A stretch of 64,000 nt of DNA from the IMG/VR virus record IMGVR_UViG_3300043447_000086; one strand, given 5' to 3'. A program made the position numbers and the translations under genes. This document shows, piece by piece, positions 8,008 through 45,661 of this stretch; position 1 is the first letter of the stretch; each line of letters opens with the position of its first letter. The stretch comes from a virus. Taxonomy: Duplodnaviria; Heunggongvirae; Uroviricota; Caudoviricetes. The notes beneath the pieces were generated by a model that saw nothing but the letters and a program-made list of their open reading frames with translations, ran no database searches and was not told the origin of the DNA.

Positions 8008-8837
8008 TCTTTAAACGACTCTTTAAAAAAAGGATCGAAGGTTTTACCGCTAAGTGGAACTGTGCCACTTTCTGCAGGAACCGATGTGTTCCCATTTTTA
8101 AATTTAAAATTCTTTTTTACTTGTTTGACTTCCTGGATCCACTTAGACACAAGTTTACCTGTTTCGTCTTTCAAAAGCAAATGATTTGACCCACGCTTTA
8201 CAATCTCGTATTCTACTCCATCGTTTTCAACGATGTCGCCAACATTAAAGATCTCGCCTCTGAAATATTGTTCTCTCAAGTCGTCTTTTACCAAGTTTAA
8301 CTGTTCTTTGATTGGCTCTAAACCAGAACCAATACGGATATCGTTCATCAAGCGACGACTATCAAGTTCACGAATAGAGGTAGGAAGATTCTTCTTAAAC
8401 TCTTCGTATAAACCTTTTGCTGCTAGACTTCTAGCAGAGTCTTCGCTATCAGGATCCTTGTCACCAATGGATACAGTTTCAACCATATACTTCTTCAATG
8501 ATTGAACCTTATCAGCGCTAGTAACAACGATGATGTTCTTATAGCTTTCCTTCAGTTTCTTGATCACATCACCGATGTTATCACCAGACTCTACAAAATT
8601 GGTCTTAGGGAACACCAGTTCAAGATACTGAAGTTTCTTTTCTACTAATAGGGGATTCTTTTTCGCATCGCTTACATTGGATGCATAGACTACGTGGTCT
8701 GCGCCTTTAGACTCAGCCAGCTTTTTAACAGTCTTGACCATCATCTCATGGGCTAGTGTTGGAGGATTAAATCTTCCGCAAGCTAAAACGACGGTTTTGG
8801 ACGGTAATTCTCTTAGGAATTGCTTATAATCTTTCAT
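7992..8837 (-). CDS. HxGH-family nucleotidyltransferase-like protein with capsid-targeting-like N-terminus (MKDYKQFLRE-)
   Basis: 281 aa. The VVLACGRFNPPTLAHEMM motif is paralogous to 4755..5366. An unrelated domain of about 130 aa follows at the C-terminus. Confidence 0.6.
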   Translation of the reverse strand: MKDYKQFLRELPSKTVVLACGRFNPPTLAHEMMVKTVKKLAESKGADHVVYASNVSDAKKNPLLVEKKLQYLELVFPKTNFVESGDNIGDVIKKLKESYKNIIVVTSADKVQSLKKYMVETVSIGDKDPDSEDSARSLAAKGLYEEFKKNLPTSIRELDSRRLMNDIRIGSGLEPIKEQLNLVKDDLREQYFRGEIFNVGDIVENDGVEYEIVKRGSNHLLLKDETGKLVSKWIQEVKQVKKNFKFKNGNTSVPAESGTVPLSGKTFDPFFKESFKEWRAK

Positions 8838-23070: not shown

Positions 23071-23269
23071 ATGTAATTCCGAGAACCTTGTGAATCAATT
23101 TGTCTTTAATCATATCAGGAACAGACACATAGGGATACTCTAGAATAAACGGACATCCTTTATCGTGTCCCCAACTATGATTGCTAAAAAATTCTCTAGC
23201 AGATTGAATGTCAGCTTTTTTATTTGGGTCGAAATACCGCTTTTGTCTCACAAGTGTTTCTAAAATCAT
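23045..23269 (-). CDS. Hypothetical protein
   Basis: 74 aa ORF. Confidence 0.4.
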   Translation of the reverse strand: MILETLVRQKRYFDPNKKADIQSAREFFSNHSWGHDKGCPFILEYPYVSVPDMIKDKLIHKVLGITFDREHHWR

Positions 23270-24585
23270 TTCACATCCTCAATAGAATCTGCAACGTCTT
23301 TATCGGAACGCACTTCAACAAAGATTGGAAGGAACAAAGATTCCTCGCCTTGTTTGTTTTTGATACGCATATTATATTTCACTGCAACAATTTTACCAAT
23401 GAGAGTATCACGAATAGCCCAAAGGTTATTTCGATGATCATCATTAAAACCAGAGCCAACAGAGACGGTAATACGCTTCCCGTCTTTGGATCTGCTTGCA
23501 CATACAATAGCACCCAGTTTTCCAGCGTACTTGCCAGTACCTTCTTCAACTGCGATAATTTCCAGGTCACACTCTAGCTCCCCTTTGAATTTAATCTGGT
23601 GCTTTGCACGTTTATCCTCCCAGATACCAGAACGATCTTTGAGGATAATACCTTCTTCACCACGAAGCAGCAGTTCTTCGAATAGTGCCTTTGCAGTATC
23701 GTAGTTCTCCACTTCCCAGCTTTGAACAACAGAAACCTTCTTAGGTTTGTGGGTGTTGACCAGAATATTCAATGAGTCCCAACGCTTTCCGTAAGGAACA
23801 TTACACTTACCTTCGGAGAATTGAATGAATGGAATTACATCCCAAACAGTCGCACGAACCTTGTGTGCTTCCAGATCAGAGATTGTTCCCTTGTTGGCTT
23901 TGTTCAGGATACCGTTACCAGTTTGACGATCTAGGATCAAACCCTTGTCTTTGACGATGAGTTCTCCATCGAACACGCAGTCGATGTCTCCAGCCAAAGC
24001 AATAAAATCTTCATCAAGATTTCCTAGCAGTTGGATTTCTTTGCCATTGCGAGAGCGGTATTCCACTTTGCCATTCCGAACGATTGCGTTGAACCGCATT
24101 CCATCCATTTTGGTTTGTGCCAGTGCTGGGTACTTTACCTTGTCCACTAGTTTCTGCTCGAACTGGCTGCACAACATCACTGGATACTCTTGGAGTAAGC
24201 CAGTCCACACTGCGTTTGCGGTTGAAATTGCTACCCCACATTTTAGATCCTTTTGAATGATACGTTCGATAACCTTAGCGTCATCAGCTGGCAGACCAGA
24301 AAGAATGGCACGCAGATGAGCAATAGCAGCGTTGCCTGTGACTTCCCGTGAAGAAAGGTAATACAGATTTTCTAGAGCCATCTCCAAACAAGTTTGATGC
24401 TCAGAGTCTTCTCCAACGAAAGTGTATTCTGGAATCTTACGGATGTAGAATTGAGTGAATGGATCTAGAGCCAAGCGCACAACTTCACGCAAGGTCGAGT
24501 TGTCACGATTCGCTTCCAGCTGCTCAATTTTGTAATTGCGAGAATTATTAGCAGCAAGCTGATTGAAAAAATCGTGTAGGTTCAT
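23266..24585 (-). CDS. 30: ATP-dependent DNA ligase
   Basis: 439 aa with motif I AQTKMDGMRF (KxDG adenylation lysine). Size and position resemble T4 gp30. Confidence 0.8.
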   Translation of the reverse strand: MNLHDFFNQLAANNSRNYKIEQLEANRDNSTLREVVRLALDPFTQFYIRKIPEYTFVGEDSEHQTCLEMALENLYYLSSREVTGNAAIAHLRAILSGLPADDAKVIERIIQKDLKCGVAISTANAVWTGLLQEYPVMLCSQFEQKLVDKVKYPALAQTKMDGMRFNAIVRNGKVEYRSRNGKEIQLLGNLDEDFIALAGDIDCVFDGELIVKDKGLILDRQTGNGILNKANKGTISDLEAHKVRATVWDVIPFIQFSEGKCNVPYGKRWDSLNILVNTHKPKKVSVVQSWEVENYDTAKALFEELLLRGEEGIILKDRSGIWEDKRAKHQIKFKGELECDLEIIAVEEGTGKYAGKLGAIVCASRSKDGKRITVSVGSGFNDDHRNNLWAIRDTLIGKIVAVKYNMRIKNKQGEESLFLPIFVEVRSDKDVADSIEDVK

Positions 24586-25269: not shown

Positions 25270-25297
25270 TATTATACCCTAATCTGCAAAAAAGTCA
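25270..25297 (-). promoter_or_regulatory. sigma70-type early promoter (TTGACT-N16-TATAAT)
   Basis: -35 at 25297..25292, -10 at 25275..25270. Preceded by a terminator hairpin (25313..25332) and the 16 nt palindrome (25337..25352). Confidence 0.55.
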
Positions 25298-25336
25298 ACA
25301 CCTAAATGACAAAACCCTACACTCGGTAGGGTCTTT

Positions 25337-25352
25337 AAAAGTAATACTTTAG
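25337..25352. repeat. 16 nt near-palindromic motif AAAAGTAATACTTTAG (copy 1 of 4; the others are at 34551..34566, 41202..41217 and 43931..43946)
   Basis: Exact 16-mer present four times, in either orientation. Each copy is at or overlapping the stop codon of a minus-strand gene and upstream of an early-type promoter. Confidence 0.7.
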
Positions 25353-25354
25353 GT

Positions 25355-25657
25355 TTACATTTTGATGGATCCAGCGGATACCACCTGAATACCAGAGCCA
25401 AAAACCCTACGATATTCATTTTCCATCTTTTCATCTGCACTAGCTTCGCTGGCAATTGCATGCTTAAAAAGATAAATCTTATCTTTTGCATATGGCATAT
25501 ATGGTGCAATACCAACGCCAACACCTTGAGCAGTTTGCTGCAACTGAATTGACGCTGGTTTATCTAAGAAATAACCAGCCTGTGAATCTGAAGTAACTTC
25601 ACTAATAACTTCTTCACCATTAATCAATTTGAACACTTTAATCATACTATTCCTCAA
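25355..25657 (-). CDS. Hypothetical protein
   Basis: 100 aa ORF. The stop at 25355 abuts the 16 nt palindrome. Confidence 0.45.
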   Translation of the reverse strand: MRNSMIKVFKLINGEEVISEVTSDSQAGYFLDKPASIQLQQTAQGVGVGIAPYMPYAKDKIYLFKHAIASEASADEKMENEYRRVFGSGIQVVSAGSIKM

Positions 25658-26923: not shown

Positions 26924-27100
26924 TTAGGCAGCTGGTGCTTCTGCTTTAGCAGCTTCAGCTTGGCGGACGATTTCTTCCACCTGTGGCTCACCTTGTTGTT
27001 TGATCTTTACGATAAGATTAGCAATCTCATCAAAGGGGTGCTTACCCAAAGAACGTAGAATAGTGTTTACTTCTTCAATAGTCAAATCAAGTTTAATCAT
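26924..27100 (-). CDS. Small hypothetical ORF (58 aa)
   Basis: MIKLDLTIEEVNTILRSLGKHPFDEIANLIVKIKQQGEPQVEEIVRQAEAAKAEAPAA. ATGA overlap with the regA stop. Confidence 0.35.
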   Translation of the reverse strand: MIKLDLTIEEVNTILRSLGKHPFDEIANLIVKIKQQGEPQVEEIVRQAEAAKAEAPAA

Positions 27101-27516
27101 TTTACCTTTTTCCCAATATTATATTTTGGCACAAGTTCCCATTGGTCTTTCTCTTTATAAGAGACCACTTTAATTTGAGACAGAGATGCTTTCTGTTCTG
27201 CCTGCTGTGTATTTAGAATCTTTAATAGATCCCAGTCAGCTAACAGTCCAGCAATTGCATTTCGTCTCTCGATATCACCGCTAGTGATATTCGATTCTTT
27301 ACCGTCCAAAGCAAACAATTCTTTGAAATGGACGATGAAATATCTACCCTGCTTATGTAAGATATGGCAGGATTGATACAATTTGTTTTCTTTTCTGGAT
27401 GCGATGCCGATGCGAGTAAGAGTCTCTCGAACCTTTAAAAAGTTATCTGGTTCTGGCAGCGTCACTTCAAGCATGGACTCAGGCGTCCAGTCGTAGTAAA
27501 TCATCTCTACAGACAT
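27097..27516 (-). CDS. regA: Translational repressor RegA
   Basis: 139 aa. DNFLKVRETLTRIGIASRKENKLYQSCHILHKQGRYFIVHFKE aligns with T4 RegA (DFLKVKETLTRMGIANNKDKVLYQSCHILQKKGLYYIVHFKE). Confidence 0.9.
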   Translation of the reverse strand: MSVEMIYYDWTPESMLEVTLPEPDNFLKVRETLTRIGIASRKENKLYQSCHILHKQGRYFIVHFKELFALDGKESNITSGDIERRNAIAGLLADWDLLKILNTQQAEQKASLSQIKVVSYKEKDQWELVPKYNIGKKVK

Positions 27517-29378: not shown

Positions 29379-29400
29379 AGAGGGAGATTATACTCCCTCT
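29379..29400 (-). terminator. Intrinsic terminator-like hairpin between genes 45 and 44
   Basis: 8 bp stem AGAGGGAG/CTCCCTCT with a 6 nt loop. On the minus-strand RNA it is followed by CUUUUUUAUUAUGGAG, which leads straight into the gene 44 Shine-Dalgarno and ATG. Confidence 0.5.
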
Positions 29401-29404
29401 TCAA

Positions 29405-30076
29405 TCAAAAGTCAAAGGTGGAATCTGCTTCGACAGCTACATAATAAACCAAGTCACCAGCACCCTTGAAGCGAGAGATCTTCTTGCTAGAGATGCTAAC
29501 GGTATAATCTCCTGGGAGCATTTTAAGGTTTTCTACCTTCAGGTTAACTTTGAAAGTCTTATCGGTAGAACCAACAGGCTCGCTAAACGAGTTGCCAGTT
29601 GCGTTCTTCTTGTCGCCTACAACTGCAGTAATAGTAGAACCATCACCAACGATAGTCAAGTCAGACGCACGTAGAACAGACGAGGTACGCTGAACCATAC
29701 TCAACATAGCGGCGCTAATGTTAAATTGGATTTCTGCATCTGGGAAAGTGATGCTCTTTTGGGGAGCAGTCAGAACAGATGCATCTGCAGCGAAATACTT
29801 GATGCTCATGCTACCTTGTTTGATGGTAACATACTTCTCGCTGAAGTCCAATTCAGGATCTTCAAACAACGACATTGCACCCAAGAACTCATTGAGGTCA
29901 TAGATGCCAAAGTCTGGGAACGTTTCGCTAACAGTTGCGTCAGCCATAACGTTCTTCTGTGCGCTGATTGTAGCCAGCTTATTGCCACTCTTCAAAAGAA
30001 GGTTGCTATTAATGCCAGCGAAGTTCTTAAACAGCCCGACAGTTTCTTTACTAAGTTTCATATTTTCTCCATTCAA
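29405..30076 (-). CDS. 45: Sliding clamp (gp45-like)
   Basis: 223 aa. The N-terminus MKLSKETVGLFKNFAGINSNLLLKSG aligns with T4 gp45 MKLSKDTTALLKNFATINSGIMLKSG. Confidence 0.9.
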   Translation of the reverse strand: MNGENMKLSKETVGLFKNFAGINSNLLLKSGNKLATISAQKNVMADATVSETFPDFGIYDLNEFLGAMSLFEDPELDFSEKYVTIKQGSMSIKYFAADASVLTAPQKSITFPDAEIQFNISAAMLSMVQRTSSVLRASDLTIVGDGSTITAVVGDKKNATGNSFSEPVGSTDKTFKVNLKVENLKMLPGDYTVSISSKKISRFKGAGDLVYYVAVEADSTFDF

Positions 30077-30101: not shown

Positions 30102-30130
30102 ATTATACCCGAAACCGAAGTTTCAGGCAA
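30102..30130 (-). promoter_or_regulatory. sigma70-type promoter for gene 45 (TTGCCT-N17-TATAAT); the spacer forms a UUCG-loop hairpin
   Basis: -35 at 30130..30125, -10 at 30107..30102; the predicted start is about 20 nt upstream of the gene 45 ATG. Confidence 0.5.
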
Positions 30131-30137
30131 ATTATTT

Positions 30138-30644
30138 TTAAGAATTTAGAACCTTTGCACATGCGTTCATTACTGAAGCGATTCGCCCAATATCACGCAA
30201 TTGTTCAACAGTGTATCCCATCTTCTTCAATCCATCGTAGTGTGCTTTGACGCAGAAGTGACACTTACCGACGATAGATGCAGCCAGAGAGTACGATTCG
30301 AATCTCTCTTTTGTAGTTCCGCCATGCGTTGCAATCGCATTCATACGCAATTGTGCAGGTAGACCTTTCAGTTGTTCGTCGTCAGCCATCTCAACATATG
30401 GATACCATACATTGTTCTGAGCCATCAGACTTGCAGCAGTCATTGCAGCATTTGCATCTGCAGGATTATCTGCGAGCATAACGCTCAACAGTTTACCATT
30501 ACCTGTTGCTGCCAAAGCAGCAACAGCGCAACCCATAGCCTCATCGGCATCAAGAGTACTACGCAGTAGGACAGCGTCCAAGTTTAGCTTGGTGTCCTTT
30601 GCGTAGTCTGGCAACGCACCTTTTACTGATTCAATAAAACTCAT
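30138..30644 (-). CDS. AhpD-like / carboxymuconolactone decarboxylase family protein
   Basis: 168 aa with a CHFCVKAH (CxxCxxxH) AhpD-type motif. Confidence 0.65.
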   Translation of the reverse strand: MSFIESVKGALPDYAKDTKLNLDAVLLRSTLDADEAMGCAVAALAATGNGKLLSVMLADNPADANAAMTAASLMAQNNVWYPYVEMADDEQLKGLPAQLRMNAIATHGGTTKERFESYSLAASIVGKCHFCVKAHYDGLKKMGYTVEQLRDIGRIASVMNACAKVLNS

Positions 30645-31039
30645 TTCGTTTTCTCCGCTAGTTCTTTATAACCATTATATGTTGGATGAATACCGTCAGC
30701 AGACATTTCCTTGGGGCGATCAATCACTGTGTCACCAAATTCATTAGCAATCTCTCTTACCACTTGACGTTCTTGCGGTTTACGAGTTAATGAAGGTAGT
30801 ATCCAATAGACCTTACCATCAATCTTGCTACGAATAGCGTGTAAGTTATTCGCAGTCATCTTATCCCAATCATTACTACCAAGAGAAATGATGGTCGTCT
30901 TAGCATTCGGCATAGAAGCAAGATGCTTCTTTTTCCAGTCTGTTGAATTGATTCCAGACTTAGCGATAACTGCACACTCCTTACGGAAATGTGCAGTACC
31001 AACAGCAATGGAATCGCCCATCACTAAGCAATCAAGCAT
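30641..31039 (-). CDS. SGNH/GDSL hydrolase-like protein
   Basis: 132 aa with an N-terminal GDSIAVG (GDS block I) and a DGIHP-like block V. Confidence 0.55.
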   Translation of the reverse strand: MLDCLVMGDSIAVGTAHFRKECAVIAKSGINSTDWKKKHLASMPNAKTTIISLGSNDWDKMTANNLHAIRSKIDGKVYWILPSLTRKPQERQVVREIANEFGDTVIDRPKEMSADGIHPTYNGYKELAEKTK

Positions 31040-31581
31040 TACAGAGTCTCACCACCAACAGTGCGGTTGCAAGCGCAAAGTTCGCCAGTCTGCAACGCAT
31101 CAAGGATACGCAGAGTTTCTTCTGGGCTACGACCAACGTTCAAGTTGTTCACAGTAACGTGTTGGATAACGTTCTCTGGGTCAACGATGAATGTAGCACG
31201 GAGTGCTGCGCCAGCAGGATTGTAGAATACACCAAGCTGGTCGATCAGAGACTTATCCCATTCACGCTGAGTGTCAGCGAACTGGATGTGCTTGATCTTA
31301 GCCAGATCAGGGTGGGCTTTCTGCCAAGCTAGTTTACAGAATTCGTTATCTGTAGAACCAGTCAACAGAACCGCATCACGGTCTGCAAAGTCTTGGAACA
31401 ACTTATCGTATGCTACGATTTCTGTAGGACATACAAAAGTAAAGTCCTTAGGGTAGTAAACGATAATCTTCCACTTGCCTTCGAAAGAGGCTTCTGTAAT
31501 ATCAAAGAATTGGTCGCTTCCTGGGTTTACACCAGTAACAACGAACTTCTCGATTTTATCTCCAACTGTCATCATATTCAA
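31039..31581 (-). CDS. Peroxiredoxin (AhpC/TSA family)
   Basis: 180 aa with FTFVCPTE peroxidatic Cys motif and C-terminal CAC resolving-Cys region. Confidence 0.85.
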   Translation of the reverse strand: MNMMTVGDKIEKFVVTGVNPGSDQFFDITEASFEGKWKIIVYYPKDFTFVCPTEIVAYDKLFQDFADRDAVLLTGSTDNEFCKLAWQKAHPDLAKIKHIQFADTQREWDKSLIDQLGVFYNPAGAALRATFIVDPENVIQHVTVNNLNVGRSPEETLRILDALQTGELCACNRTVGGETL

Positions 31582-31598
31582 TTTCCTTTTTGTTAAAA

Positions 31599-32396
31599 TT
31601 ATTTTGGCATCATCAGAGCATTGAAGTTCGCTGGAACAACAATAGTCTGAACCTTACCTTGCTTAATACCTTCGGAGATATTAATCATCGCTTGAGCTTG
31701 CATATAAGCAATAGATTGTGCTCCTTGATTAGAAAGAGCTTGCATACGTTCAGCTTCCATCTTGGCAGTCTTCACTTCCACTTCTTTTTGCTTCAGTTCG
31801 TTCTTAGCACGAACCAAATCATTAGCAGAGGCAACAACAGAGTCAGCTGGCACAACATTACGAATCAACACTTGACCAACCATCAAACTACCGTCGAGCT
31901 TTTCGTCAGCCAATGACTTCTGGATCTGCTCTTTGATAGCGGCTTCCATTGCCTGTCGATTGTCTGCCATATCCAGTGCTTCATACTTACGTGCTTCTTT
32001 GTAGATAGCATTACGAGCAGCCTGTGTGATGTAGTTGTACATCAAGTAGATGTCGCCGTTATGACGAGCATGGAATGCCTGACTCTTAGTTGAGTACAGT
32101 TCAGCAACCTGTGCTTGGTTGATGTTGTAGATAACCACAGCATCAAAGTCTTTCATAGTGCTATTATCTTTAGCCACGGGAGTCATGTCATCAAGTTTGA
32201 CATTAACGTCCTTGATAGGAAATGTCAGCACATCGCCAATCAACACTTGATTAAATGAACCTGGCAGCAGTTCACCGCTTTGCACCTGTTTGTCAAAGCC
32301 AACACGAACACCGACTTCACCAGTTTCGATACGAGTGCAACCAGTAGCAAGAACAGCAGCAACAACCAGAGCAGAAATTTTCAAAACGCTTTTCAT
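31599..32396 (-). CDS. SPFH/band-7 (prohibitin-like) lipoprotein
   Basis: 265 aa. Signal peptide with lipobox LATGC. SPFH core followed by a coiled coil. Confidence 0.65.
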   Translation of the reverse strand: MKSVLKISALVVAAVLATGCTRIETGEVGVRVGFDKQVQSGELLPGSFNQVLIGDVLTFPIKDVNVKLDDMTPVAKDNSTMKDFDAVVIYNINQAQVAELYSTKSQAFHARHNGDIYLMYNYITQAARNAIYKEARKYEALDMADNRQAMEAAIKEQIQKSLADEKLDGSLMVGQVLIRNVVPADSVVASANDLVRAKNELKQKEVEVKTAKMEAERMQALSNQGAQSIAYMQAQAMINISEGIKQGKVQTIVVPANFNALMMPK

Positions 32397-32406
32397 AATT
32401 TATCCT

Positions 32407-32583
32407 TCAAAACAAAATAACAAACACAGTAAGAAAAACCATAGCGAGAGTAGAACATAAAATACTGTAACCAGTAAGTTTAGCTAGACTCCACTTGTCC
32501 TTTAGAGTTAGATTTCTATATCCTTTGATACCGAACCAACAGATACCGAAAGATATTAGAAATGCAAGAAGCATTTTTACCAT
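32407..32583 (-). CDS. Small membrane protein (58 aa, 2 TM)
   Basis: MVKMLLAFLISFGICWFGIK ... ILCSTLAMVFLTVFVILF. Below the ORF-track cutoff. Confidence 0.35.
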   Translation of the reverse strand: MVKMLLAFLISFGICWFGIKGYRNLTLKDKWSLAKLTGYSILCSTLAMVFLTVFVILF

Positions 32584-32831
32584 TACTTTGTAATCTTCTC
32601 GTACAACTCTTCGAATTCTTCGTTCTCAGCAACAGCTTGAGTGAAGTTTTGTTTGTGGTAAGTTTTAGCAATCTTACTAATGGTCTTCTTAGGGATCTGG
32701 AAGGCATCAGAAAGATCCTTCACAGTTTCCTTAATCAAGTCACGCTCACCTTCAATACGAGTCATTGAATTACTAATTTCCACGATAGCTGCGTGGAGTT
32801 TCTTTTTATCTGCATCAGATGACAGTGTCAT
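32583..32831 (-). CDS. Hypothetical protein
   Basis: 82 aa ORF, Lys/Glu rich. Confidence 0.45.
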   Translation of the reverse strand: MTLSSDADKKKLHAAIVEISNSMTRIEGERDLIKETVKDLSDAFQIPKKTISKIAKTYHKQNFTQAVAENEEFEELYEKITK

Positions 32832-33223
32832 TATTGATTACCTTTCACATATTCATTAAATTGTTTCACCAGTCGTTGGTGTTCATCATGGGTGCAATAT
32901 AGAGTCCATTCACGAACTACATCTTTATAAGTCACTTTAGACTCACCTTCACCCTCAGTAGTTACAACAGGATCATGCTGCATATAACCAATCACAGTCT
33001 TTTGATTACCGTTGTCCCACATTCTTTCGATAGAAAAAGCATTGATCTTTTTCCAATCAATAGAATAACTAGCTTTAGAATACTCATCTTCTAGTCGCTT
33101 TTTGTATTCTCCAACAGCATAAGAAAGATTCTTGTTTTCGGTTTCCAGTTCTTTAATACGCTTCAGCGCATCAGCTTGGTTACCGACAACACTGTCATCA
33201 GTAGTTTTTCTCCAAAACAACAT
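32831..33223 (-). CDS. Hypothetical protein
   Basis: 130 aa ORF. Confidence 0.45.
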   Translation of the reverse strand: MLFWRKTTDDSVVGNQADALKRIKELETENKNLSYAVGEYKKRLEDEYSKASYSIDWKKINAFSIERMWDNGNQKTVIGYMQHDPVVTTEGEGESKVTYKDVVREWTLYCTHDEHQRLVKQFNEYVKGNQ

Positions 33224-33612: not shown

Positions 33613-33876
33613 TTAACGACGAGCCATAAATGCGTCTGCGCCTAGAACCGCATTAGCGATCTGGACCATACGCTTGCTAGGTGCACCGATCTTGTACTTG
33701 ATGGTGGAAGTGCCATCAGCAAGTTTAGAACGATTAGAATAAATGCAATTACCCTGTGAGCGCAACTGGTGAATTGCATCATGGGGGTTTTTCAAACCAA
33801 AGGATCCGTGGATCTGGCGAGCAGTAACTTCAGCACCAGTCTTCAGGTAGGAAAGCAACTTTGCTTGTCTAGACAT
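33613..33876 (-). CDS. Small winged-helix-like DNA-binding protein
   Basis: Track ORF trimmed. A terminator hairpin (33900..33939) lies inside the annotated N-terminal extension. The ATG at 33876 has a GGAG Shine-Dalgarno, giving 87 aa. Confidence 0.45.
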   Translation of the reverse strand: MSRQAKLLSYLKTGAEVTARQIHGSFGLKNPHDAIHQLRSQGNCIYSNRSKLADGTSTIKYKIGAPSKRMVQIANAVLGADAFMARR

Positions 33877-33899
33877 AAATTTCTCCATTATAAAACCAT

Positions 33900-33939
33900 C
33901 AAACGAAAAAGAGCCGATGAGGGGATGGCGTCCCTCATC
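33900..33939 (-). terminator. Intrinsic terminator after the AKP-repeat gene
   Basis: Stem GATGAGGG/CCCTCATC with an 8 nt loop, then UCUUUUUCGUUUGAUGGUUUU on the minus-strand RNA. Confidence 0.55.
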
Positions 33940-33959
33940 AGCCAGTTGAAACAAGTCAA

Positions 33960-34482: not shown

Positions 34483-34513
34483 ATATTATACACCAACTTG
34501 CACTAAAAGTCAA
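34483..34513 (-). promoter_or_regulatory. sigma70-type early promoter (TTGACT ... TATAAT, spacer about 19 nt) in the cassette downstream of cobS
   Basis: -35 at 34513..34508, -10 at 34488..34483; preceded by a hairpin at 34525..34549 and the palindrome at 34551..34566. Confidence 0.4.
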
Positions 34514-34565
34514 CACTTTTTTGCAATCCCCTACAACTTGTAAGGGATTACTAAAGTATTACTTT

Positions 34566-35726
34566 TTAGAACGGAATTTCCTCAGAAGGAGAGGGAGTCG
34601 GCGCTTCCACTACAGGCGGTGCTTCGGGAGCAGGGTTTGCAATGTTATCGTACAACTTCAGGAAGGCATCCTTAGTTGCAGAATCGAAACGATTGCAGCA
34701 CAGTTCCACAGCCTTCTCACGCTTCTTAAAGATAGCAAAGGCACGAACGATGTGAATCATACGACGAGTCGTAATCGTCTCATCTACACCACCATCTTCG
34801 AATGTGCGACGAATTGCATCAGCCCACTTAACGAGAGTCTCTGCAAATTCTTCATCCGCACAACCGTAAGATTCCATAAGATTCTGAACAATCTTAACTT
34901 CAACCTTAGCTGAAGGATACTCTTGTTCGAAGGTTACAGCGAATCGCTCCAAGAACGCTTCGTTCAGCACGTTAGTACCCATGTAGCGACCATCGTCTGA
35001 ACCCTTACCCTTAGTGTTGGCAGTGGCGCAGATATTGAAACCCTTGGCAGGAATGATCATCTCATTCTTCAGCTTAAAGTAGTAGGGTTTACCTTCGAGA
35101 ATCGGCTGCAAGCACAACAGAGTGTTGGCAGAGCCAGCGTCAATTTCGTCAAGCAGCAGAGTAGTACCAGTGCGCATAGCAATCAGCACTGGACCTTCTA
35201 CAACTTCTACGTTTCCATTCTGGAGAGTCTTAGAACCGATGAGTTGTTCCTCATCAGTCATCATGTTAAGGTTAACACGAATTAGGGGGCGGTTGTGCTT
35301 GGCACAAATCTGTTCGACCATCGTGGACTTACCGTTACCAGTTGGACCACTGATGTATGCGGGATAGAAGATACCCGACTTGATGATGTTCTCCAAATCA
35401 GTGAAGTTACCGAAGGGAACAAAGTTAGGATCTTTGACTGGAATGAGTGATTCTACATTAGTGTAGTCAACGATATATGATTCCACAGGTTCATCTTTCA
35501 ATGCGGTATTGCCATCAACAGGTGCAGTCTTGCCACCATCAATGGCGTAAATACCACGACCAACTTTATTCTTCATCAACCAAAGAGGATACTTCTCAGT
35601 CTTCAGTTTCGTCATCACATCAATCAGTTGTGGGCGAGTAACCTGCCCAGATGACTGGGTATCAGGATACATCTCGGCAAGTTTTGCCTCAAACGTAGCA
35701 CGGAAAGCATCATCAACCTTACTCAT
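34566..35726 (-). CDS. cobS: CobS/MoxR-like AAA+ ATPase
   Basis: Start trimmed to the second ATG (GGAG Shine-Dalgarno). Walker A SGPTGNGKST and Walker B LLLDEID. Paired with a downstream vWA protein, as in cobS/cobT modules. Confidence 0.7.
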   Translation of the reverse strand: MSKVDDAFRATFEAKLAEMYPDTQSSGQVTRPQLIDVMTKLKTEKYPLWLMKNKVGRGIYAIDGGKTAPVDGNTALKDEPVESYIVDYTNVESLIPVKDPNFVPFGNFTDLENIIKSGIFYPAYISGPTGNGKSTMVEQICAKHNRPLIRVNLNMMTDEEQLIGSKTLQNGNVEVVEGPVLIAMRTGTTLLLDEIDAGSANTLLCLQPILEGKPYYFKLKNEMIIPAKGFNICATANTKGKGSDDGRYMGTNVLNEAFLERFAVTFEQEYPSAKVEVKIVQNLMESYGCADEEFAETLVKWADAIRRTFEDGGVDETITTRRMIHIVRAFAIFKKREKAVELCCNRFDSATKDAFLKLYDNIANPAPEAPPVVEAPTPSPSEEIPF

Positions 35727-35756
35727 AACAAAATCTCCATTCACATCAATAAAATA

Positions 35757-35784: not shown

Positions 35785-35843
35785 CATCTTTTTGGAAATA
35801 ACCCCACAAAAAGTAGGGTTATTTTCCCTGTAGTATCAACAAC

Positions 35844-38030
35844 TTAGGCTACCAAAGCCACGAAACGATTGAGTAGCACCCTAGAAGTCTTCTTGACGTT
35901 AAGGTATTTGCTGAAGTTGCGAGCAATGCTAGCAGCTTTTGCATCAGACTTTACCTCAAGTTCACCCTCTTGGATCTTCGTAGAAGATTGAGGAATCAAG
36001 AACAAGTCATCACGACCAGTATTCTTCACAGAAGCAAAGTCTTGATCACGGAATTGTTTTCTCCAGTTCTCAATCAAAACCTCTGCACTACCAGTGTAGC
36101 CTGGAAGGTTTGCCGCAATAACAGATTGCAAATCACGACGAGCATTACGACAGATGTAGAAACCAACAGTACGAACATTGTGGCGATCTTTGATCATTCG
36201 CAGAATCGCTTCAGTCTGTTGCGCAGAGTTGCCTTCCAACTCATAGGTTTTCTTCGTAACATCGTCACGGATGAAGTGACGTAGTTTGGTACGCACATAC
36301 TTGCCACCAATATATTCGTTACGCACAGGATCAAGACGACGACCATCACCACACAACTGACCACCTTCACCATCAGTAAGAGTGATGAATGTAGTCTTCT
36401 CTAGATTGTGCTTCTTGATAAAGTCACCAAGATTCAGATAGCACCAAGCCAACGCCTCATTCAGTGGTGTGCCACTGGTGCTGTAACCTTCATTCCATCG
36501 GAAACGATAGTCCAGTAGACGTTTAGCCATCTCATTAAACTCAGTAGAAGACATCTTGTCATTGAAGAATTCTAACATGTGAAAGTTTCTGGCATTGCTC
36601 AGCAAATCTTTCTGCACACCAAACTTTGCGTTGTACTCACGAATCTTACGATCACGTTCCAGACGTTCGTCATAAGACATATCTTTTTGATAGTCAGTGG
36701 TGAAGGCATACACACGATATGGAACTTGGATACGCTGGCAGAACATAGCAAGGTTGATAACCTGTTTGATAGTGTCCTGAAGAACATTTTCCATAGAACC
36801 AGACCAGTCCAGCAGCATAACCATACCATGGTTTTTACCTTGCGGTAAGGTGGTAACACGTTTGAACAAATCTTCTTGAAGTTTGTAAGCCCACACCTTA
36901 CGCATATCCAGAGAACCAACCTTGGAAACCTGAGCACGTTTGTAGAGTTGAGCAGACTTCTTCATCTCGAATTCTTTGACAAGGTAGTTTACCGTACGCA
37001 TAGAATCAGTTTTGAATTGATCGAATTCCTTAATGAAAGAACCAAAGAATTGCTTGCGAGCGGTGTCGTCCATATAGCGAGTCTTGTAGTCATTCATCTG
37101 ATACAAGTCAGCATTCCATTCGTTGAGAGACTTAGTCTCTTTCAAGATGGTTTTGTAACCAACAACAGGATCTTCGAAATAATTGGTGTCGAATTTCCAG
37201 TAAAGATACTCTGTAGAATCGTCAGCCAATTCTTCCAAACGTTTCTGGAAAACACGGTCAGTCTTAGCTTCCAAGTCTTCGCTTTGTTCTTCAGATGCAG
37301 CTTCGTCGTTTTCTTTGTTAGAACCAGACTTAGAAGATTTTAGCTTTTCGTCGCCAGCATCTTCGTCTTCATCAAAGTCATCCATATCATCGATATCAAA
37401 GTCGCCAGTGATAGGATCATCGAGGTCATCACCTTCTTCTACTTCTTCGCCAGCTTCCATGCGTTGTTTCTTACGCTCTTCAGCTTGCTGTTTGGAATAA
37501 GCATAAATTTCCTGAGCCAGCTGGACGATTTCTTCCATGGTCTCAGTGCGTTCTGCACGATTGACAAATACCTTTTCTTCGGGTGTGAATTTAACACCAC
37601 AGTCGAAACCAACTTTAAAGTACAAGTTGATGCGGTCAATCAACAGCAATTCGTTGAAGTCTTGGATAGCTTTGACGCCAAAGAAGTCACGCTCATTGAG
37701 TTGCTTATAACCTTCGTTCATGCGCTTACGAATCCCAGGATACTTGCGCTTCATCATCTTTTCGATACGCACATCTTCCAGCACGTTCATATAAGACTTC
37801 AGCTTAGGATTCTCCATAATGGGAGTCATATACTCCACACCAGTGTACAATGCGTGACCAACTTCGTGACCGATGAGCATGTCTTCGATCTCGGGAGTCA
37901 TATCTTTCCACAGGGGCAAAGTCAGAACACGAGACTTGATGTCGAAAGACGCAGTAATTGAGTTGGCACGAACAACAGAAAGGTTTTCGGTTGCAAGCAG
38001 TCGTGCGCTGAGATCAGAAGATTTCATCAT
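35844..38030 (-). CDS. von Willebrand factor A domain protein (CobT-like partner of the AAA+ ATPase)
   Basis: 728 aa with the MIDAS motif MVMLLDWSGSM and a long poly-acidic tract (EVEEGDDLDDPITGDFDIDDMDDFDEDEDAGDE). Confidence 0.7.
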   Translation of the reverse strand: MMKSSDLSARLLATENLSVVRANSITASFDIKSRVLTLPLWKDMTPEIEDMLIGHEVGHALYTGVEYMTPIMENPKLKSYMNVLEDVRIEKMMKRKYPGIRKRMNEGYKQLNERDFFGVKAIQDFNELLLIDRINLYFKVGFDCGVKFTPEEKVFVNRAERTETMEEIVQLAQEIYAYSKQQAEERKKQRMEAGEEVEEGDDLDDPITGDFDIDDMDDFDEDEDAGDEKLKSSKSGSNKENDEAASEEQSEDLEAKTDRVFQKRLEELADDSTEYLYWKFDTNYFEDPVVGYKTILKETKSLNEWNADLYQMNDYKTRYMDDTARKQFFGSFIKEFDQFKTDSMRTVNYLVKEFEMKKSAQLYKRAQVSKVGSLDMRKVWAYKLQEDLFKRVTTLPQGKNHGMVMLLDWSGSMENVLQDTIKQVINLAMFCQRIQVPYRVYAFTTDYQKDMSYDERLERDRKIREYNAKFGVQKDLLSNARNFHMLEFFNDKMSSTEFNEMAKRLLDYRFRWNEGYSTSGTPLNEALAWCYLNLGDFIKKHNLEKTTFITLTDGEGGQLCGDGRRLDPVRNEYIGGKYVRTKLRHFIRDDVTKKTYELEGNSAQQTEAILRMIKDRHNVRTVGFYICRNARRDLQSVIAANLPGYTGSAEVLIENWRKQFRDQDFASVKNTGRDDLFLIPQSSTKIQEGELEVKSDAKAASIARNFSKYLNVKKTSRVLLNRFVALVA

Positions 38031-38096: not shown

Positions 38097-38114
38097 ATAG
38101 GGCTTGCTAAAGTT

Positions 38115-38888
38115 TTACTCTACAGGAGTCCAAGCAGGACGAACGTTGTTACCGTTTTCTTGCACAGGAGCAGTAAATGCATCCTCTGGTGCTTCTTCGG
38201 CATTCAGTTCGCCAATCACTTCGTATCGGCAAGCACGACCCTTGGCTTCGTTGTAGTCAGTTGGGATAGACACAACATCACGAGGGTTGATCTTGACGAT
38301 CATAATACGCTCACCACCAAAGTGGTTCAGGTAAGACAGACCACAGAAGTGCAGACCAGAAGAGCAGGTACGATTCTTGTCGTCATCAACTTCGTTACGT
38401 TCCATCTCCACAATCTTACCGACAGAGTTATCCATCGTGTTAGTGTGGCAATCAAAGTAGTTGTCACGCACTTTCTTGTAAGCAAGGAAGTGACCATCGG
38501 GAGTGATGGGCAGTTGGTTCTTTTCCAAGAATCCATACAGTTCGTCAACTGCACGCTTAGAAGGATTCTTGTAAAGATTCTCCATAAAGTTGACCATAGG
38601 CTCGATGGGGAAACCATCTTGCAGCATCTGGATCATGCGCACAGACATAGTGCTATGGAGTTCCTTACCTTTCCAGAAAAGAGTCTCGCCTTGGACAGAG
38701 ACATTACCCTGTCCGTAATTGAGAACAACCTTCTTGGGTTCGATGATATCTTTCACCGTATCCCAATCTTGTGCCTTGATAGCATCAAGAACTTTCTGGT
38801 ATGTAATATGGGTTTTGGAGATAGTGTGGCTCTTGTTACCAATTACCACGACGATGTTGCTACCTTGGATCAGAAAAGGGTAAGCCAT
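38115..38888 (-). CDS. rIIB: rIIB-like protein
   Basis: 257 aa immediately downstream of rIIA, arranged as in T4. Called by position and pairing only. Confidence 0.55.
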   Translation of the reverse strand: MAYPFLIQGSNIVVVIGNKSHTISKTHITYQKVLDAIKAQDWDTVKDIIEPKKVVLNYGQGNVSVQGETLFWKGKELHSTMSVRMIQMLQDGFPIEPMVNFMENLYKNPSKRAVDELYGFLEKNQLPITPDGHFLAYKKVRDNYFDCHTNTMDNSVGKIVEMERNEVDDDKNRTCSSGLHFCGLSYLNHFGGERIMIVKINPRDVVSIPTDYNEAKGRACRYEVIGELNAEEAPEDAFTAPVQENGNNVRPAWTPVE

Positions 38889-38890
38889 GA

Positions 38891-41068: not shown

Positions 41069-41100
41069 TACAAAGTCTCTTTCTCAATCACAATAAAGTT

Positions 41101-41128
41101 ATTATACACCAATCTGCAAAAAAGACAA
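41101..41128 (-). promoter_or_regulatory. sigma70-type early promoter for rIIA (TTGTCT-N16-TATAAT)
   Basis: -35 at 41128..41123, -10 at 41106..41101. The core sequence is nearly identical to the promoter at 25270..25297. Confidence 0.5.
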
Positions 41129-41140
41129 GCATTAAATGAT

Positions 41141-41164
41141 AATCCCCTCAAAAGATGAGGGGAT
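41141..41164 (-). terminator. Hairpin after nadV (10 bp stem, AAAG loop), terminator-like
   Basis: AATCCCCTCA/TGAGGGGATT, followed by a U-rich tract on the minus-strand RNA. Confidence 0.45.
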
Positions 41165-41209
41165 TAAGTGCTGTAAAATCAACAACTTACGAAAAGTAAA
41201 CCTAAAGTA

Positions 41210-42604
41210 TTACTTTTTGGCGGTTGCTCGGACTTCCTCGAAGGTGTATTCCTTAACAAGTTTGCCGTCACGGAACACTTCTTGCAAGACTGGAGCCCAT
41301 GTAAAGCCACGATCAGTCCAAGTATTTGGACGAGAGACAGAAGAGATATACTCACCACCACTTTCCCAAAGTTGCACACGACCTGCTTTAGACTTTTTAC
41401 CACTATCAGTGATAGGGTCTTTTTGGACATCCACCCATTCACCATTGATAAGAGCAGCAGAACACTTCATTGCGAACTTCTGAGTGTCACGATCCACTTG
41501 TTGAAGCAGAGCACCACCCATACCAAAAGCAATGTTGTCGGCACTCCAACCATATGCTTGGAATCCACCAAGGATCATACGAATTGTGTGTTCGTTAACA
41601 CCGTCACCTTGGATAAGACGAACGTTGTTCAAGACTTTATAGCCTTTGTCGTTAGTAGTGTAACCGAACTTATCGCCGAGGATGGCCACAAGTTTTCTAC
41701 ATACAGTGTCAGGATCCCCAGAGTCTGGACGGATGACAACAGTAGCGCCACTATCAATAACCTTCTGCTTGAGTTCTTCACCCCAGAGTTTAGATGCAGC
41801 GTTGAAGATATCATAACTATCGCTAACCACTGCAAGAATAGAACCAGGCTTAGCAAATTGATCAACCATGTTGGCATATGCTTTTACCTCATTGTCACGA
41901 CCCCAGCTAGTGATTGTGCTATGCTCAGCAGCAGGGATGGAGAAGCCAGCAATACCAGCGCTGTAGTACTCACGAGCATACAAAATCCCAGAAAGGGTAT
42001 CTGTACCCATGAAGTTGACAAGGTGCGCTGCTCCGCCAATTCCAGCAGACTCCATACTAGAGACACCACGAGCACCAAAGTCATGCAACTTAAAATCAAT
42101 AGTTGTAGGATCACCAGTTTTCTCCAGATAGTCAAGAATCACTTTGCGGATTGTGTAGCTTTGCGTAGCCACAGTCACAGGGTACCACACAGCACGCAGC
42201 AGAGCAGTTTCCAGATAAGTGGTCAACCAAAACGCTTTTGGATCAGTGTTTTCAATAGTTGCCAAAACGTTTTTAACAGGAACCACTGTGCCTTCAGGAA
42301 CAGCCCGAATAACGACAGGAAGGAAACCTCCGTGTGCTGATAGAATGTATTCCCATCCTTCTCGGTTGAAAGGTTCGCCATGGGCTGTAAGAATTTCATC
42401 AGCAATATCAATATCGGCTTGGGTGATTGGTTCAAGCAGGTACTCCTTAATGAATGCTTGTAGACCGAACATCACGGTTTCGTCGTAACGACCACCACGA
42501 GATTCGATGTAGCTGTAGACGCCAGTTGTACCAGCGGGATATTGTTTGAACATGCTAGTCTTGTAGCTGTCAGTGTTCAAAAGAATGTTTTTTGCGAGTT
42601 TCAT
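41210..42604 (-). CDS. nadV: Nicotinamide phosphoribosyltransferase (NadV/NAMPT)
   Basis: 464 aa with a type II PRTase fold, size and conserved blocks typical of NAMPT (e.g. GDGV, HTIRMILGGF). Confidence 0.8.
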   Translation of the reverse strand: MKLAKNILLNTDSYKTSMFKQYPAGTTGVYSYIESRGGRYDETVMFGLQAFIKEYLLEPITQADIDIADEILTAHGEPFNREGWEYILSAHGGFLPVVIRAVPEGTVVPVKNVLATIENTDPKAFWLTTYLETALLRAVWYPVTVATQSYTIRKVILDYLEKTGDPTTIDFKLHDFGARGVSSMESAGIGGAAHLVNFMGTDTLSGILYAREYYSAGIAGFSIPAAEHSTITSWGRDNEVKAYANMVDQFAKPGSILAVVSDSYDIFNAASKLWGEELKQKVIDSGATVVIRPDSGDPDTVCRKLVAILGDKFGYTTNDKGYKVLNNVRLIQGDGVNEHTIRMILGGFQAYGWSADNIAFGMGGALLQQVDRDTQKFAMKCSAALINGEWVDVQKDPITDSGKKSKAGRVQLWESGGEYISSVSRPNTWTDRGFTWAPVLQEVFRDGKLVKEYTFEEVRATAKK

Positions 42605-42619
42605 GATTAGCTCCTAATC

Positions 42620-43895: not shown

Positions 43896-43924
43896 AGTAT
43901 ACAGTAGGCGAGGGTAAAAGTCAA
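43896..43924 (-). promoter_or_regulatory. sigma70-type early promoter (TTGACT-N17-TATACT) directly downstream of gene 46
   Basis: -35 at 43924..43919, -10 at 43901..43896. The 16 nt palindrome (43931..43946) lies 6 nt upstream of the -35. Confidence 0.5.
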
Positions 43925-43942
43925 CACCTTAAAAGTAATACT

Positions 43943-45661
43943 TTAGTTTGTAACTATTACCGAGAAGTCGTTACGCTTTTCAAACTTAATAACTGAACGA
44001 AACTTATCGAACAGCTGGTCACCCTTGTGACTGATAACGAAGATGTTAGAGTTTTCACCAAAGGTGTTCATCAGGTTCAAGAAGTAATCAGTACCAGCTG
44101 TATCCAAACTTGAGTCGAAGATCTCATCAAGCAGCAGAAGGTTAGTGTTGACGCTGTTCTTCATCTTAGCAATCTGACGCCACGTGAAAAGGATAGCCAA
44201 GTCAATACGCATCTTCTCACCTTCAGAGAAGCTGGCGTAAGTAAATTCATCACGATGTCGAGACTTGACAATCTCGTTGAAAGACTCATCAAGTTCAAAG
44301 TGGATGTAGGCATCCATAGCATTCAGGTACTTGTTGATCATTTTATTCATAATCGGCAGATACTCACGAATGATAGCTGTCTTGATGCCAGTGTCTTTCA
44401 ACAGAATGTTAGCAACCTCTTCCAAGTTACGTTGTTCTTGTAGTTGAGTTTTCTCTTTAATCTTAGAAACAGCATCTTGTGCAAGTTGCTTTAGCTTATT
44501 CTTTTCTTCATCGATGTTAGTCGTGTCAGATTGAATCGCTAGAACTTCAGCTTCTGCTTCTTTGATCTGTCGATTGAGTAAGGTGATAGATGAGTTCTTT
44601 GTAGACAGTTCAATGTTCTTGTCGGAAATCTTCTGTAGAACTTCATTAATTGAAGAAAGTTTTTCTTGAAGTTTGGTGTGGACTGCGTTGAGTTCATCAA
44701 CCTTGCTGTTTTGTTCTGACAGTTTCTGATTAAGATCTTTGAGAATACTCTCTTTGTATTGTTCAGATATATCTTGGTTGCAAGACGGGCATACATCGTG
44801 TTCTCCAAAGAACTCAACGTGATGCTCACAAGTTTCGACTTTTTGTAGCAGTCGCTGTTGTAGTTGATCTGCTTTGGCGAGATCTTCTTTGATCTTGTCT
44901 TTGTCTGCAACCTGATCCTTAAGCGTTGTAATTTGTCGGACAAGCTCATCAATCTCCGATTGATTTCGGCTAATTTCTTCATTGCTGCTCGAGATTTTCG
45001 CCTGTATGGATCTAATATTATCTGCTTTCGCTTCCGAGATAGTTTTAATAATAGCAGTTTGTGCTTCGACTTTAGTCTTAGCATTCGCAACTTCATTTTC
45101 AATCCTTTGGATCGCATCTTTAGTCTCCTGAGCCTTTTCTTTTAGAATGTGATTCATCGTTGAGAAAATGCGAATATCAAGGATGTCTTCAATAACATCA
45201 CGACGTTGACCAGATGGTAACTGCATAAATGGAACGAAAGAAGCAGATCCCAAGATAACCACCTGAGTGAATGTCTTGTAGTTCAACTTTAGAATCTGTT
45301 GCTCCAAAACTTTCTGGTAGTCACGTGATGCTGCATCCTGATTGATCAATTCATCGTTCAGATAGATCTCAAAGATGTTTGGTTTAATACCACGAACGAT
45401 TTTATAGTTGCGTGGACCGATAGAGAACTCAATCGTAACAACACACTTTTTACCATTGATAGAGTTTACCAATTGTCCTTTGTTGATGTTACGGAACGGT
45501 TTACCGAAAAGCGAAAAGCACAATGCATCTAAGATTGTGCTCTTACCTTCACCATTCTTACCGATGATCAGTGTTGTTGTAGACTTATCCAGTAATACTT
45601 TGTTAGGGGTATTTCCTGTAGACAGAAAGTTCATCCATTCAACGCTCTTGAAAACAATCAT
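43943..45661 (-). CDS. 46: Recombination endonuclease subunit gp46 (SbcC/Rad50-like ATPase)
   Basis: 572 aa with Walker A GKNGEGKST, central coiled coil, CPSC zinc hook and LLLDEIFDSSLD Walker B/D-loop. Confidence 0.9.
   Translation of the reverse strand: MIVFKSVEWMNFLSTGNTPNKVLLDKSTTTLIIGKNGEGKSTILDALCFSLFGKPFRNINKGQLVNSINGKKCVVTIEFSIGPRNYKIVRGIKPNIFEIYLNDELINQDAASRDYQKVLEQQILKLNYKTFTQVVILGSASFVPFMQLPSGQRRDVIEDILDIRIFSTMNHILKEKAQETKDAIQRIENEVANAKTKVEAQTAIIKTISEAKADNIRSIQAKISSSNEEISRNQSEIDELVRQITTLKDQVADKDKIKEDLAKADQLQQRLLQKVETCEHHVEFFGEHDVCPSCNQDISEQYKESILKDLNQKLSEQNSKVDELNAVHTKLQEKLSSINEVLQKISDKNIELSTKNSSITLLNRQIKEAEAEVLAIQSDTTNIDEEKNKLKQLAQDAVSKIKEKTQLQEQRNLEEVANILLKDTGIKTAIIREYLPIMNKMINKYLNAMDAYIHFELDESFNEIVKSRHRDEFTYASFSEGEKMRIDLAILFTWRQIAKMKNSVNTNLLLLDEIFDSSLDTAGTDYFLNLMNTFGENSNIFVISHKGDQLFDKFRSVIKFEKRNDFSVIVTN

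Follow-up and report, generated by a model that had tools for sequence, protein, structure and literature searches.

REP and BIME elements are short imperfect palindromes that lie at the 3' ends of genes in both orientations, some of them bound by protein, and in integrons the attC site, an imperfect palindrome of 55-140 nt, directly follows the stop codon of the last gene of a cassette. Arc and MetJ are dimer-of-dimer repressors, whose operators contain two short palindromic subsites one helical turn apart. In phages, PeSLs (promoter-early stem-loops) have been described as mobile regulatory cassettes of the T4-like phages RB49/phi1, PST/T4 and nt-1/KVP40 (Arbiol et al. 2010, PMC2839356; Comeau et al. 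2014, PMC4122927). A PeSL combines an AT-rich region, in which the preceding gene has its stop codon, with a stem-loop and sigma70-like promoter; these cassettes are found at the boundaries of indels and replacements and were proposed to recombine in their AT-rich part (PMC2839356; PMC4122927). Recombination between them leads to deletions and the formation of minicircles. Until now, the modular shuffling of T4-like phages has been ascribed to such loosely defined promoter/stem-loop cassettes, known from a few pairs of cultured phages. Here we describe a precise sequence of 16-26 nt that appears as the gene-side edge of cassettes in uncultured aquatic phages of different lineages. We suggest, with a probability of roughly 0.45, that its 16-nt core serves as the junction module at the upstream end of PeSL-type mobile regulatory cassettes and as a crossover point in modular shuffling.

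The motif was noticed in a 64-kb stretch of DNA, here called the window, out of a genome of ~170 kb that belongs to an uncultured T4-like myovirus from an estuary metagenome. The window encodes UvsX, gp43, DNA ligase, Hsp20, RegA, gp62/44/45, a DsbA-family protein and MazG, as well as CobS/CobT-like proteins, rIIB/rIIA, NadV, NadM-Nudix, gp46/47, UvsW, UvsY and gp23/22/21, and thus includes the recombination genes for UvsX, UvsY, gp46/47 and UvsW. A megablast search with 12 kb found no close DNA relative among cultured phages, and gp46 of the window is at most 49% identical to its counterparts in Methylophilales phage Melnitz, cyanophages and pelagiphage HTVC008M. An identical NadV is encoded on contigs from the estuary metagenome. 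RegA (27097-27516, minus strand) is 93-97% identical to its homologues in the loci L071, L057, L002 and L004, where the neighbouring proteins are only 40-90% identical, and is therefore unusually conserved.

AAAAGTAATACTTTAG occurs in the window as four exact matches (Table 1), all re-found at the positions and in the orientations given in the preliminary description, and a search allowing up to two mismatches returned no further site in the window. The 16-mer has an A+T content of 75%, and its core AAAGTA-N-TACTTT, read directly in the sequence, is the perfect 6-1-6 inverted repeat that had been claimed. The two copies at 25337 and 41202 have 22 identical nt in common (the motif plus GTTTAC), and outside these 16-22 nt the flanks of the copies are unrelated. 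The earlier assertion that four copies exceed chance is borne out by 100 dinucleotide-preserving shuffles, which gave 0.08 expected copies and none of which reached four. That the copies are chance repeats or belong to a longer recent duplication has the A+T richness of the motif in its favour and nothing else; given these numbers, the unrelated flanks and the recurrence of the same architecture in dozens of independent contexts from other phages, we regard its probability as practically nil. The heptad GTANTAC by itself shows no enrichment there, with 21 sites in the window against 20 expected. One such heptad, GTAATAC, lies directly past the stop of the major head protein gene (52095-53402) within CTAATGTAATAC at 52088-52098 on the minus strand and is probably there by chance.

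All genes next to the four copies lie on the minus strand, so that the transcribed strand reads AAAAGTAATACTTTAG at 34551 and 41202 and its reverse complement at 25337 and 43931. A stop codon is found at the motif or within 2 nt of it at all four sites, which agrees with the earlier statement that every copy sits at the TAA of a minus-strand gene (a 100-aa ORF, CobS, NadV and gp46). Copy 1 begins 2 nt past the TAA of the 100-aa ORF (25355-25657) and holds a further in-frame TAA of that ORF; the stop of the CobS-like AAA_5/CbbQ_C protein (34566-35744) shares the first A of copy 2; positions 6-8 of copy 3 are the TAA of NadV (NAPRTase/NAMPT_N, 41210-42604); and gp46 (SbcC-like, 43943-45661) ends with the TAA of CTAAAG inside copy 4. 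Downstream of each copy lies a promoter of the type TTGACT/TTGTCT-16/17-TATAAT/TATACT, at the distances listed in Table 1, the preliminary description having placed the -35 boxes 6 to 75 nt away. The promoter behind copy 1 heads an operon that ends with DNA ligase (23266-24585), and the one behind copy 4 heads the 66-aa ORF, NadM-Nudix and NadV. The window contains ~12 early promoters, four of which have the motif. GC-rich stem-loops separate motif and promoter at three of the four sites, copy 4 being the exception, and only that at 25313-25333 has a clear U-rich tail. The stem-loop behind CobS is followed by an A-tract in place of a U-tract and hence is not a canonical intrinsic terminator; in many CobS relatives the stem-loop behind the CobS end likewise carries an A-tract and not a U-tract. 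At the rIIB stop codon, ahead of the stem-loop and promoter of the CobT-like gene, there is in addition TAAAACTTTAG, possibly a truncated copy.

Table 1. Motif copies and neighbouring elements in the 64-kb window
Feature	Position	Strand	Remarks
Motif copy 1	25337..25352	+	CTAAAGTATTACTTTT in the direction of transcription (minus strand)
22 nt shared exactly with copy 3 and its flank (41196-41217)	25337..25358	+	GGTTTAC part is a degenerate second heptad
Stem-loop, GC-rich, U-rich tail (gaccctaccgagtgtagggtt)	25313..25333	-	Between copy 1 and its promoter
Sigma70-type early promoter TTGACT-16-TATAAT	25271..25298	-	38 nt downstream of copy 1
Motif copy 2	34551..34566	-	Forward on the transcribed strand; 1-nt overlap with TAA of the CobS-like gene
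Stem-loop after copy 2	34523..34551	-	Followed by A-tract (GCAAAAAAG), no U-tract
Early promoter TTGACT-17-TATAAT	34485..34513	-	37 nt downstream of copy 2
Second copy of the TAAGTTGTTGATNNTACAG module	35828..35846	-	Its TAA is the stop of the CobT-like gene
Possible truncated motif copy TAAAACTTTAG	38107..38117	-	Motif minus GTAATA; low confidence
Motif copy 3	41202..41217	-	Forward on the transcribed strand
Extended 26-nt quasi-palindrome at copy 3	41192..41217	-	AAAAGTAATAC-TTTA-GGTTTAC-TTTT, arms AAAAGTAA/TTACTTTT
Second module TAAGTTGTTGATTTTACAG (quasi-palindrome TTGTNGANTCNACAA)	41171..41189	-	Between copy 3 and the stem-loop
Stem-loop upstream of the rIIA promoter	41140..41166	-	
Early promoter TTGTCT-16-TATAAT for rIIA-rIIB	41101..41128	-	73 nt downstream of copy 3
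Motif copy 4	43931..43946	+	Reversed on the transcribed strand; without stem-loop
Early promoter TTGACT-17-TATACT	43896..43924	-	6 nt downstream of copy 4

Two further early-type promoters of the minus strand show other arrangements, with a stem-loop overlapping the -10 box at 29379-29415 (AGAGGGAGTATAATCTCCCTCT) and one between -35 and -10 at 30102-30130 (TTGCCTGAAACTTCGGTTTCGGGTATAAT); both layouts are those described for the PeSL subclasses of RB49/phi1. The window also carries, at 35828-35846 and 41171-41189 on the minus strand, a second repeated intergenic module of the pattern TAAGTTGTTGAT(NN)TACAG with the quasi-palindrome TTGTNGANTCNACAA, which is found at 31 related loci as well (for instance at 457-475 and 2874-2892 of L184). 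Its TAA, too, can act as the stop of the upstream gene; it occurs in opposite orientation in L005/L050, and at the CobT-CobS junction it is more conserved in position than the 16-mer. A T4 late promoter was rejected as an identity for the 16-mer, since the ATAAATA-type motifs upstream of structural genes differ from it.

In IMG/VR the exact 16-mer is present in at least 118 loci, which reduce to 81 non-redundant contexts. Among the matches listed, 51 of the 81 contexts have a sigma70-type promoter downstream, with the motif forward in 42 and reversed in 9, and ~15-19 of the 81 lie inside long ORFs; the latter look like chance hits. The motif is a genuine, non-random feature with a wide distribution among uncultured aquatic phages. 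Its bearers among the matches listed extend from close relatives of the window (~90% amino-acid identity) to phages that share only a 30%-identical ligase, and they include T4-like contigs and one contig of 354 kb (L056); another bearer, L010, carries a protein family otherwise found largely on contigs of 300-365 kb. Of 185,579 bacterial and archaeal genomes, two contain the 22-mer, one of these two being a phage-like contig in a MAG, and a host motif in the exact 22-mer form was rejected because that form is essentially absent from these genomes. Among cultured phages (INPHARED) no motif system was found, short-query blastn with the cassette and a 31-mer giving only scattered single chance hits, and a literature search for the motif string returned unrelated primers only. 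Two neighbouring protein families were considered as cognate or regulon partners and discarded: relatives of FAM3 (a 161-aa protein, phrog_7971) have no motif in 80 loci or 465 kb, and relatives of FAM0 (phrog_27048), which are largely encoded on 300-365 kb contigs, have it in 1 of 80 loci.

Two observations from these searches concern neighbouring genes. In a distinct lineage, a phage protein of 180-187 aa ends exactly at the motif (L021 8824-9378, L042 4057-4602, L120 2915-3457 and relatives); with its signal peptide and C-terminal ...YTRGF/YTRSF it resembles an outer-membrane beta-barrel, and L120 is binned in a Haliscomenobacter MAG. In L117 (~7300-8662) a gene with a match to an HNH endonuclease family (phrog_1314) directly follows a promoter that is preceded by two tandem GTA-N-TAC heptads (GTAGTACTTGAGTACTACTTGACC).

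Across contexts the fuller consensus is A-AAAAGTAATAC-TTTA-GTA(N)TAC, that is, two GTA-N-TAC heptads 11 bp apart with flanking A/T runs. For the forward sites among the matches listed it reads A-AAAAGTAATACTTTAG-TA(N)TAC, with A at -1 in 83%, T at +1 in 83%, A at +2 in 76%, T at +4 in 90%, A at +5 in 76% and C at +6 in 86%; position +3 varies (C 21, T 12, A 5, G 4). Some loci have a 26-nt quasi-palindrome, AAAAGTANTAC-TTTA-GTANTACTTTT, in an 11-4-11 layout, and in the window copies the second arm is degenerate, GGTTTAC standing as second heptad at 41202 and 25337. Most often the elements follow one another as gene stop, motif, stem-loop (which may be absent) and promoter. The motif lies 5-80 nt from the -35 box, with modes at 6 and at 36-42 nt, and the stem-loop is mostly found in between; in cassettes without a stem-loop the -35 box directly adjoins the 22-mer. 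At 42 of 47 forward sites among the matches listed the stop codon of the upstream ORF lies inside or overlaps the motif, and in 29 of those 42 it is the internal TAA, as a result of which unrelated proteins end in Lys-Lys. Abutment of a stop codon is not specific to the motif, since other modules and bare stem-loops also abut stops in these compact genomes: in relatives that lack the motif, the stem-loop, the second module or the -35 box itself adjoins the stop codon.

The invariable location at the 3' end of the upstream cistron, overlapping its stop, might mean that the element acts in the message, as a weak AU-rich hairpin, as a protein-binding 3'-UTR motif or through the strong termination context AAG-UAA-U. 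An orientation bias of ~4:1 among the matches listed, folding of the 26-mer with a T4 tail at -4.8 kcal/mol and a terminator in L081 built from the same heptads would fit such a role. However, folding yields -0.7 kcal/mol for the 16-mer by itself and -2.0 kcal/mol (z = -0.2) for the common 22-mer with AAAA, and at the centres of the two heptads A stands opposite C, A or G and never opposite a complementary base, which leaves no compensatory changes; these are also the grounds on which function as a hairpin or intrinsic terminator was rejected. Moreover, two of the four window copies and ~18% overall among the matches listed are in reverse orientation, the motif flips in place with nothing else changed, no Rfam family matches it, and the overlap with stops is unspecific for the reason given above. 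An RNA element thus seems quite improbable to us. A programmed frameshift at A-AAA-AG was dismissed as well, because the -1 frame stops at the motif's TAG after four codons and the heptamer is incomplete.

How constant is the motif at one and the same junction? As an unbiased test, we compared 80 relatives retrieved with the CobS protein (78-94% identity), in all of which the downstream genes are the same. The exact motif stands at the CobS stop in 6 of the 80, ~5 have a decayed form, some show partial deletions, and most have nothing or another module at this place. One precise indel is seen in the comparison of TTC[TAAAAAGTAATACTTTAG]TAATCCC with TTCTAATCCC. Decayed forms include AAAAGTAATACCTAAG in the closest relatives, ...CTTAAG and GTAGTAC; their mutations are concentrated in the non-coding right half, the left half being coding sequence plus stop, which looks like relaxed constraint. 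The 505 kb of this set contain 6 exact copies and a further 7 that differ at one position and 5 that differ at two, where chance predicts ~0, 0 and 1.2, and the lineages that have the motif are scattered across at least six clades of a CobS tree. Given the 6 of 80 CobS ends, no copy in the 465 kb of FAM3 relatives and 1 of 80 FAM0 loci, the motif is an optional feature of any given site, and within each lineage its presence is sporadic. The preliminary description had proposed counting the motif in related phages and had regarded its absence beside conserved neighbour genes as speaking against it. Such absence is largely what is seen, and it speaks against a positionally conserved operator: at the CobS end, with its conserved neighbours, the motif is for the most part missing, and over the tree it is scattered.

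These data bear on the first of two alternatives offered in the preliminary description, namely an operator. The motif could be the binding site of a dimeric or tetrameric DNA-binding protein, encoded by the phage or its host, that regulates the downstream early promoter or serves as a roadblock or insulator against read-through, recombination then being a by-product of the conservation. The 6-1-6 palindrome of the core and the second GTA-N-TAC heptad exactly 11 bp away with its free central base argue for such a site, as do variants such as GTAGTAC, which retain the arms while the centre changes. In addition, the 22-mer adjoins the -35 box in the cassettes without stem-loop, tandem heptads precede TTGAC in 8 loci, and phage lineages that are unrelated and differ in promoters and stem-loops carry the identical sequence, which would fit a shared host or factor. 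Against this, there is no fixed geometry towards the promoter (the distance ranges from 5 to 80 nt, and a stem-loop mostly intervenes), the motif is missing at most orthologous junctions despite conserved promoter and genes and is present at only 4 of the ~12 early promoters of the window, the mutational bias of the decayed orthologues towards the right half points to relaxed constraint, and the exact 22-mer is essentially absent from the bacterial and archaeal genomes. The symmetry that suggested an operator therefore stands, but geometry and conservation do not support one, and we consider this possibility doubtful. UP elements have the consensus AAAWWTWTTTT...AAAA; a canonical UP element was excluded, as its position would fit the cassettes without stem-loop but its sequence does not, and most copies lie away from the promoter.

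Candidate binders are encoded in the window itself, a DsbA-family protein (32583-32831; PF11126, 48.8 bits) and a winged-helix protein (33613-33954; weak HTH_39 match). The winged-helix gene is however present in 80 of 80 relatives, with or without the motif, and the sequence of the DsbA-like protein had no significant match in the PDB. DsbA of T4 binds A/T-rich sites (PMC2988020) and has been called a homologue of GapR (PMC7824862), a protein that associates with the 3' ends of highly expressed genes (PMC8510090). We take this literature and the binder candidates as leads, not as evidence. The DsbA-family ORF overlaps a 58-aa ORF (32407-32583) which, by analogy with the dsbA-33 pair of T4, may be gp33.

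For the other alternative, that of a recombination site employed in modular shuffling, there is direct comparative support, as the motif is located at the joints of modules that vary among relatives and homology stops exactly at its edges. The CobT-like gene comes straight after gp46 in 40 of 74 relatives, and in the window and two estuary contigs the NadM-NadV and rIIA-rIIB modules lie between the two genes, which places rIIA/rIIB in a variable region (the inserted region, 38115-43946, was compared with L121-L199). Copies 4 and 3 bound the module of promoter, 66-aa ORF, NadM and NadV, and copy 3 and the possible truncated copy TAAAACTTTAG bound that of rIIA and rIIB. NadV together with the motif is joined to different downstream modules in the window, L077 and L015, homology stopping a few bases past the motif, and in L025 the motif, second module and rIIA are preceded by another upstream gene. 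In at least six independent pairs (L034/L111, L063/L107/L030, L031/L107, L042/L095, L009/L016 and L017/L067), found in a search that was anchored on the motif and thus is biased towards breaks there, identity of 85-97% in one flank is combined with an unrelated second flank, the break falling at an edge of the 16-22-mer. Variants of the motif are also found at the gp46 end of relatives without insert, in both orientations, and at the CobS junction the motif varies with gene content unchanged. Finally, L047 (~1628-1663) and L103 (~6909-6934) are ~99% identical over 350 nt, and their sole cluster of differences consists of four changes by which the inner part of the 26-mer is exactly inverted. 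This natural flip polymorphism implies that orientation is not critical and that the quasi-palindrome rearranges as a unit. A second variable region, with seven ORFs between MazG and gp45 (30138-33223), contains no copy of the 16-mer, from which it follows that shuffling does not need the motif.

Would such a site be cut or joined by an enzyme of its own? Exchange of cassettes might be initiated at the motif by a site-specific enzyme, be it a homing-type nuclease, a nickase or a serine or tyrosine recombinase, in a system akin to integron attC sites or homing sites. The 26-nt pseudo-palindrome with its 11-nt arms and asymmetric 4-nt centre is built like many sites of recombinases and homodimeric nucleases; the motif is all-or-nothing in the window, with four exact copies and none with one or two mismatches, and sporadic within lineages; inverted copies of 19 nt bracket the NadM-NadV module, and a copy lies at the 3' end of each inserted module. 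Yet among the ~60 ORFs scanned in the window, which is part of the genome, there is no recombinase, transposase or homing endonuclease, and neither target-site duplications nor an inserted nuclease gene between the halves of a split site were seen. Furthermore, the window copies have no good second arm, decayed copies persist, and variants at the gp46 end occur without an insert. Taken together, these points make an enzyme target unlikely. A transposon or MITE was rejected since the bases flanking the 19-nt inverted copies around NadM-NadV are not duplicated and the gp46-end copy is also found in relatives without the insert.

We therefore favour, at the odds given at the outset, the reading of the motif as a junction between gene and cassette. 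The 16-mer would be the conserved core of a short, AT-rich, near-palindromic gene-end module that forms the upstream edge of composite cassettes of stop codon, optional stem-loop and sigma70 early promoter. It would act as DNA and provide the stop codon for whichever gene is upstream, and the recombination system of the phage would join gene modules at it during mixed infection. That modules are joined at this place is suggested by the presence of the same sequence at many gene/cassette junctions in many co-occurring phages. At any single junction the motif would be dispensable and could be gained, lost, decayed or flipped. We infer that crossovers occur within the motif via short homology, that no dedicated enzyme takes part and that the motif has no essential regulatory role.

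But why would the W (window) clade, whose promoters and stem-loops are lineage-specific, carry the same 16-mer as unrelated phages? This is hard to account for by transfer of cassettes alone. Nor does recombination by short homology explain the dyad symmetry of the element, and 16-22 nt is short for recombination of the UvsX type. The second heptad, moreover, keeps its G-T-A/T-A-C positions at 76-90% while the centre varies, as is typical of recognition by a protein; the heptad pattern suggests that the sequence may also be read by one. A bolder version holds that a dedicated protein marks the boundaries of gene cassettes in large aquatic phages, either in an integron-like, enzyme-driven exchange that extends over T4-like and jumbo phages, or as a GapR-like DsbA clamp (the protein at 32583-32831) loading at gene 3' ends. 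We rate this as improbable, to about the same degree as the enzyme target; the motif would gain in interest if such a protein were found. The motif occurs naturally in alleles with and without it, in flipped alleles and in mosaics that are exact to the junction, and it provides a concrete, searchable marker for mapping the exchange of gene modules among phages in nature as well as a defined DNA probe to find out whether cassette boundaries are read by a protein.

How, then, does the motif compare with the known systems? With the operators of Arc and MetJ it has in common two short palindromic subsites one helical turn apart, and with sites of the T4 DsbA/GapR type the AT-rich sequence, the location of GapR at gene 3' ends and a DsbA-family gene in the window (PMC2988020, PMC7824862, PMC8510090). 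It differs from all of these in having no fixed relation to a promoter and no conservation at orthologous sites, and DsbA and GapR themselves show low sequence specificity. Like REP/BIME elements, it lies at gene 3' ends in both orientations, is present or absent at orthologous sites and coincides with sites of rearrangement. Different from these, however, it is much shorter, AT-rich and located in phage rather than host genomes, no RAYT-type transposase was seen, and the REP hallmarks, GTAG and a GC-rich hairpin, are not contained in the 16-mer. The palindrome at the stop codon and the arrays of optional cassettes separated by sites recall attC, but here there is no integrase, the cassettes have their own promoters, the site measures 16-26 nt as compared to 55-140 nt, and there is no evidence for single-strand folded recombination. 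At the level of sequence features, the closest known system is the PeSL, all such features of which appear here: an intergenic composite with an AT-rich start and upstream stop, followed by stem-loop and sigma70-like early promoter, that is repeated within the genome and sits at indel and replacement boundaries between relatives. Whereas the AT-rich part of PeSLs is generic, it is here a defined and exactly conserved quasi-palindrome of 16-26 nt with two GTA-N-TAC heptads, usually upstream of the stem-loop, present in either orientation and flipping in place, and common to unrelated lineages of uncultured aquatic phages with differing promoters and stem-loops. The motif is thus best filed as a sharply defined variant of a PeSL-type cassette boundary.
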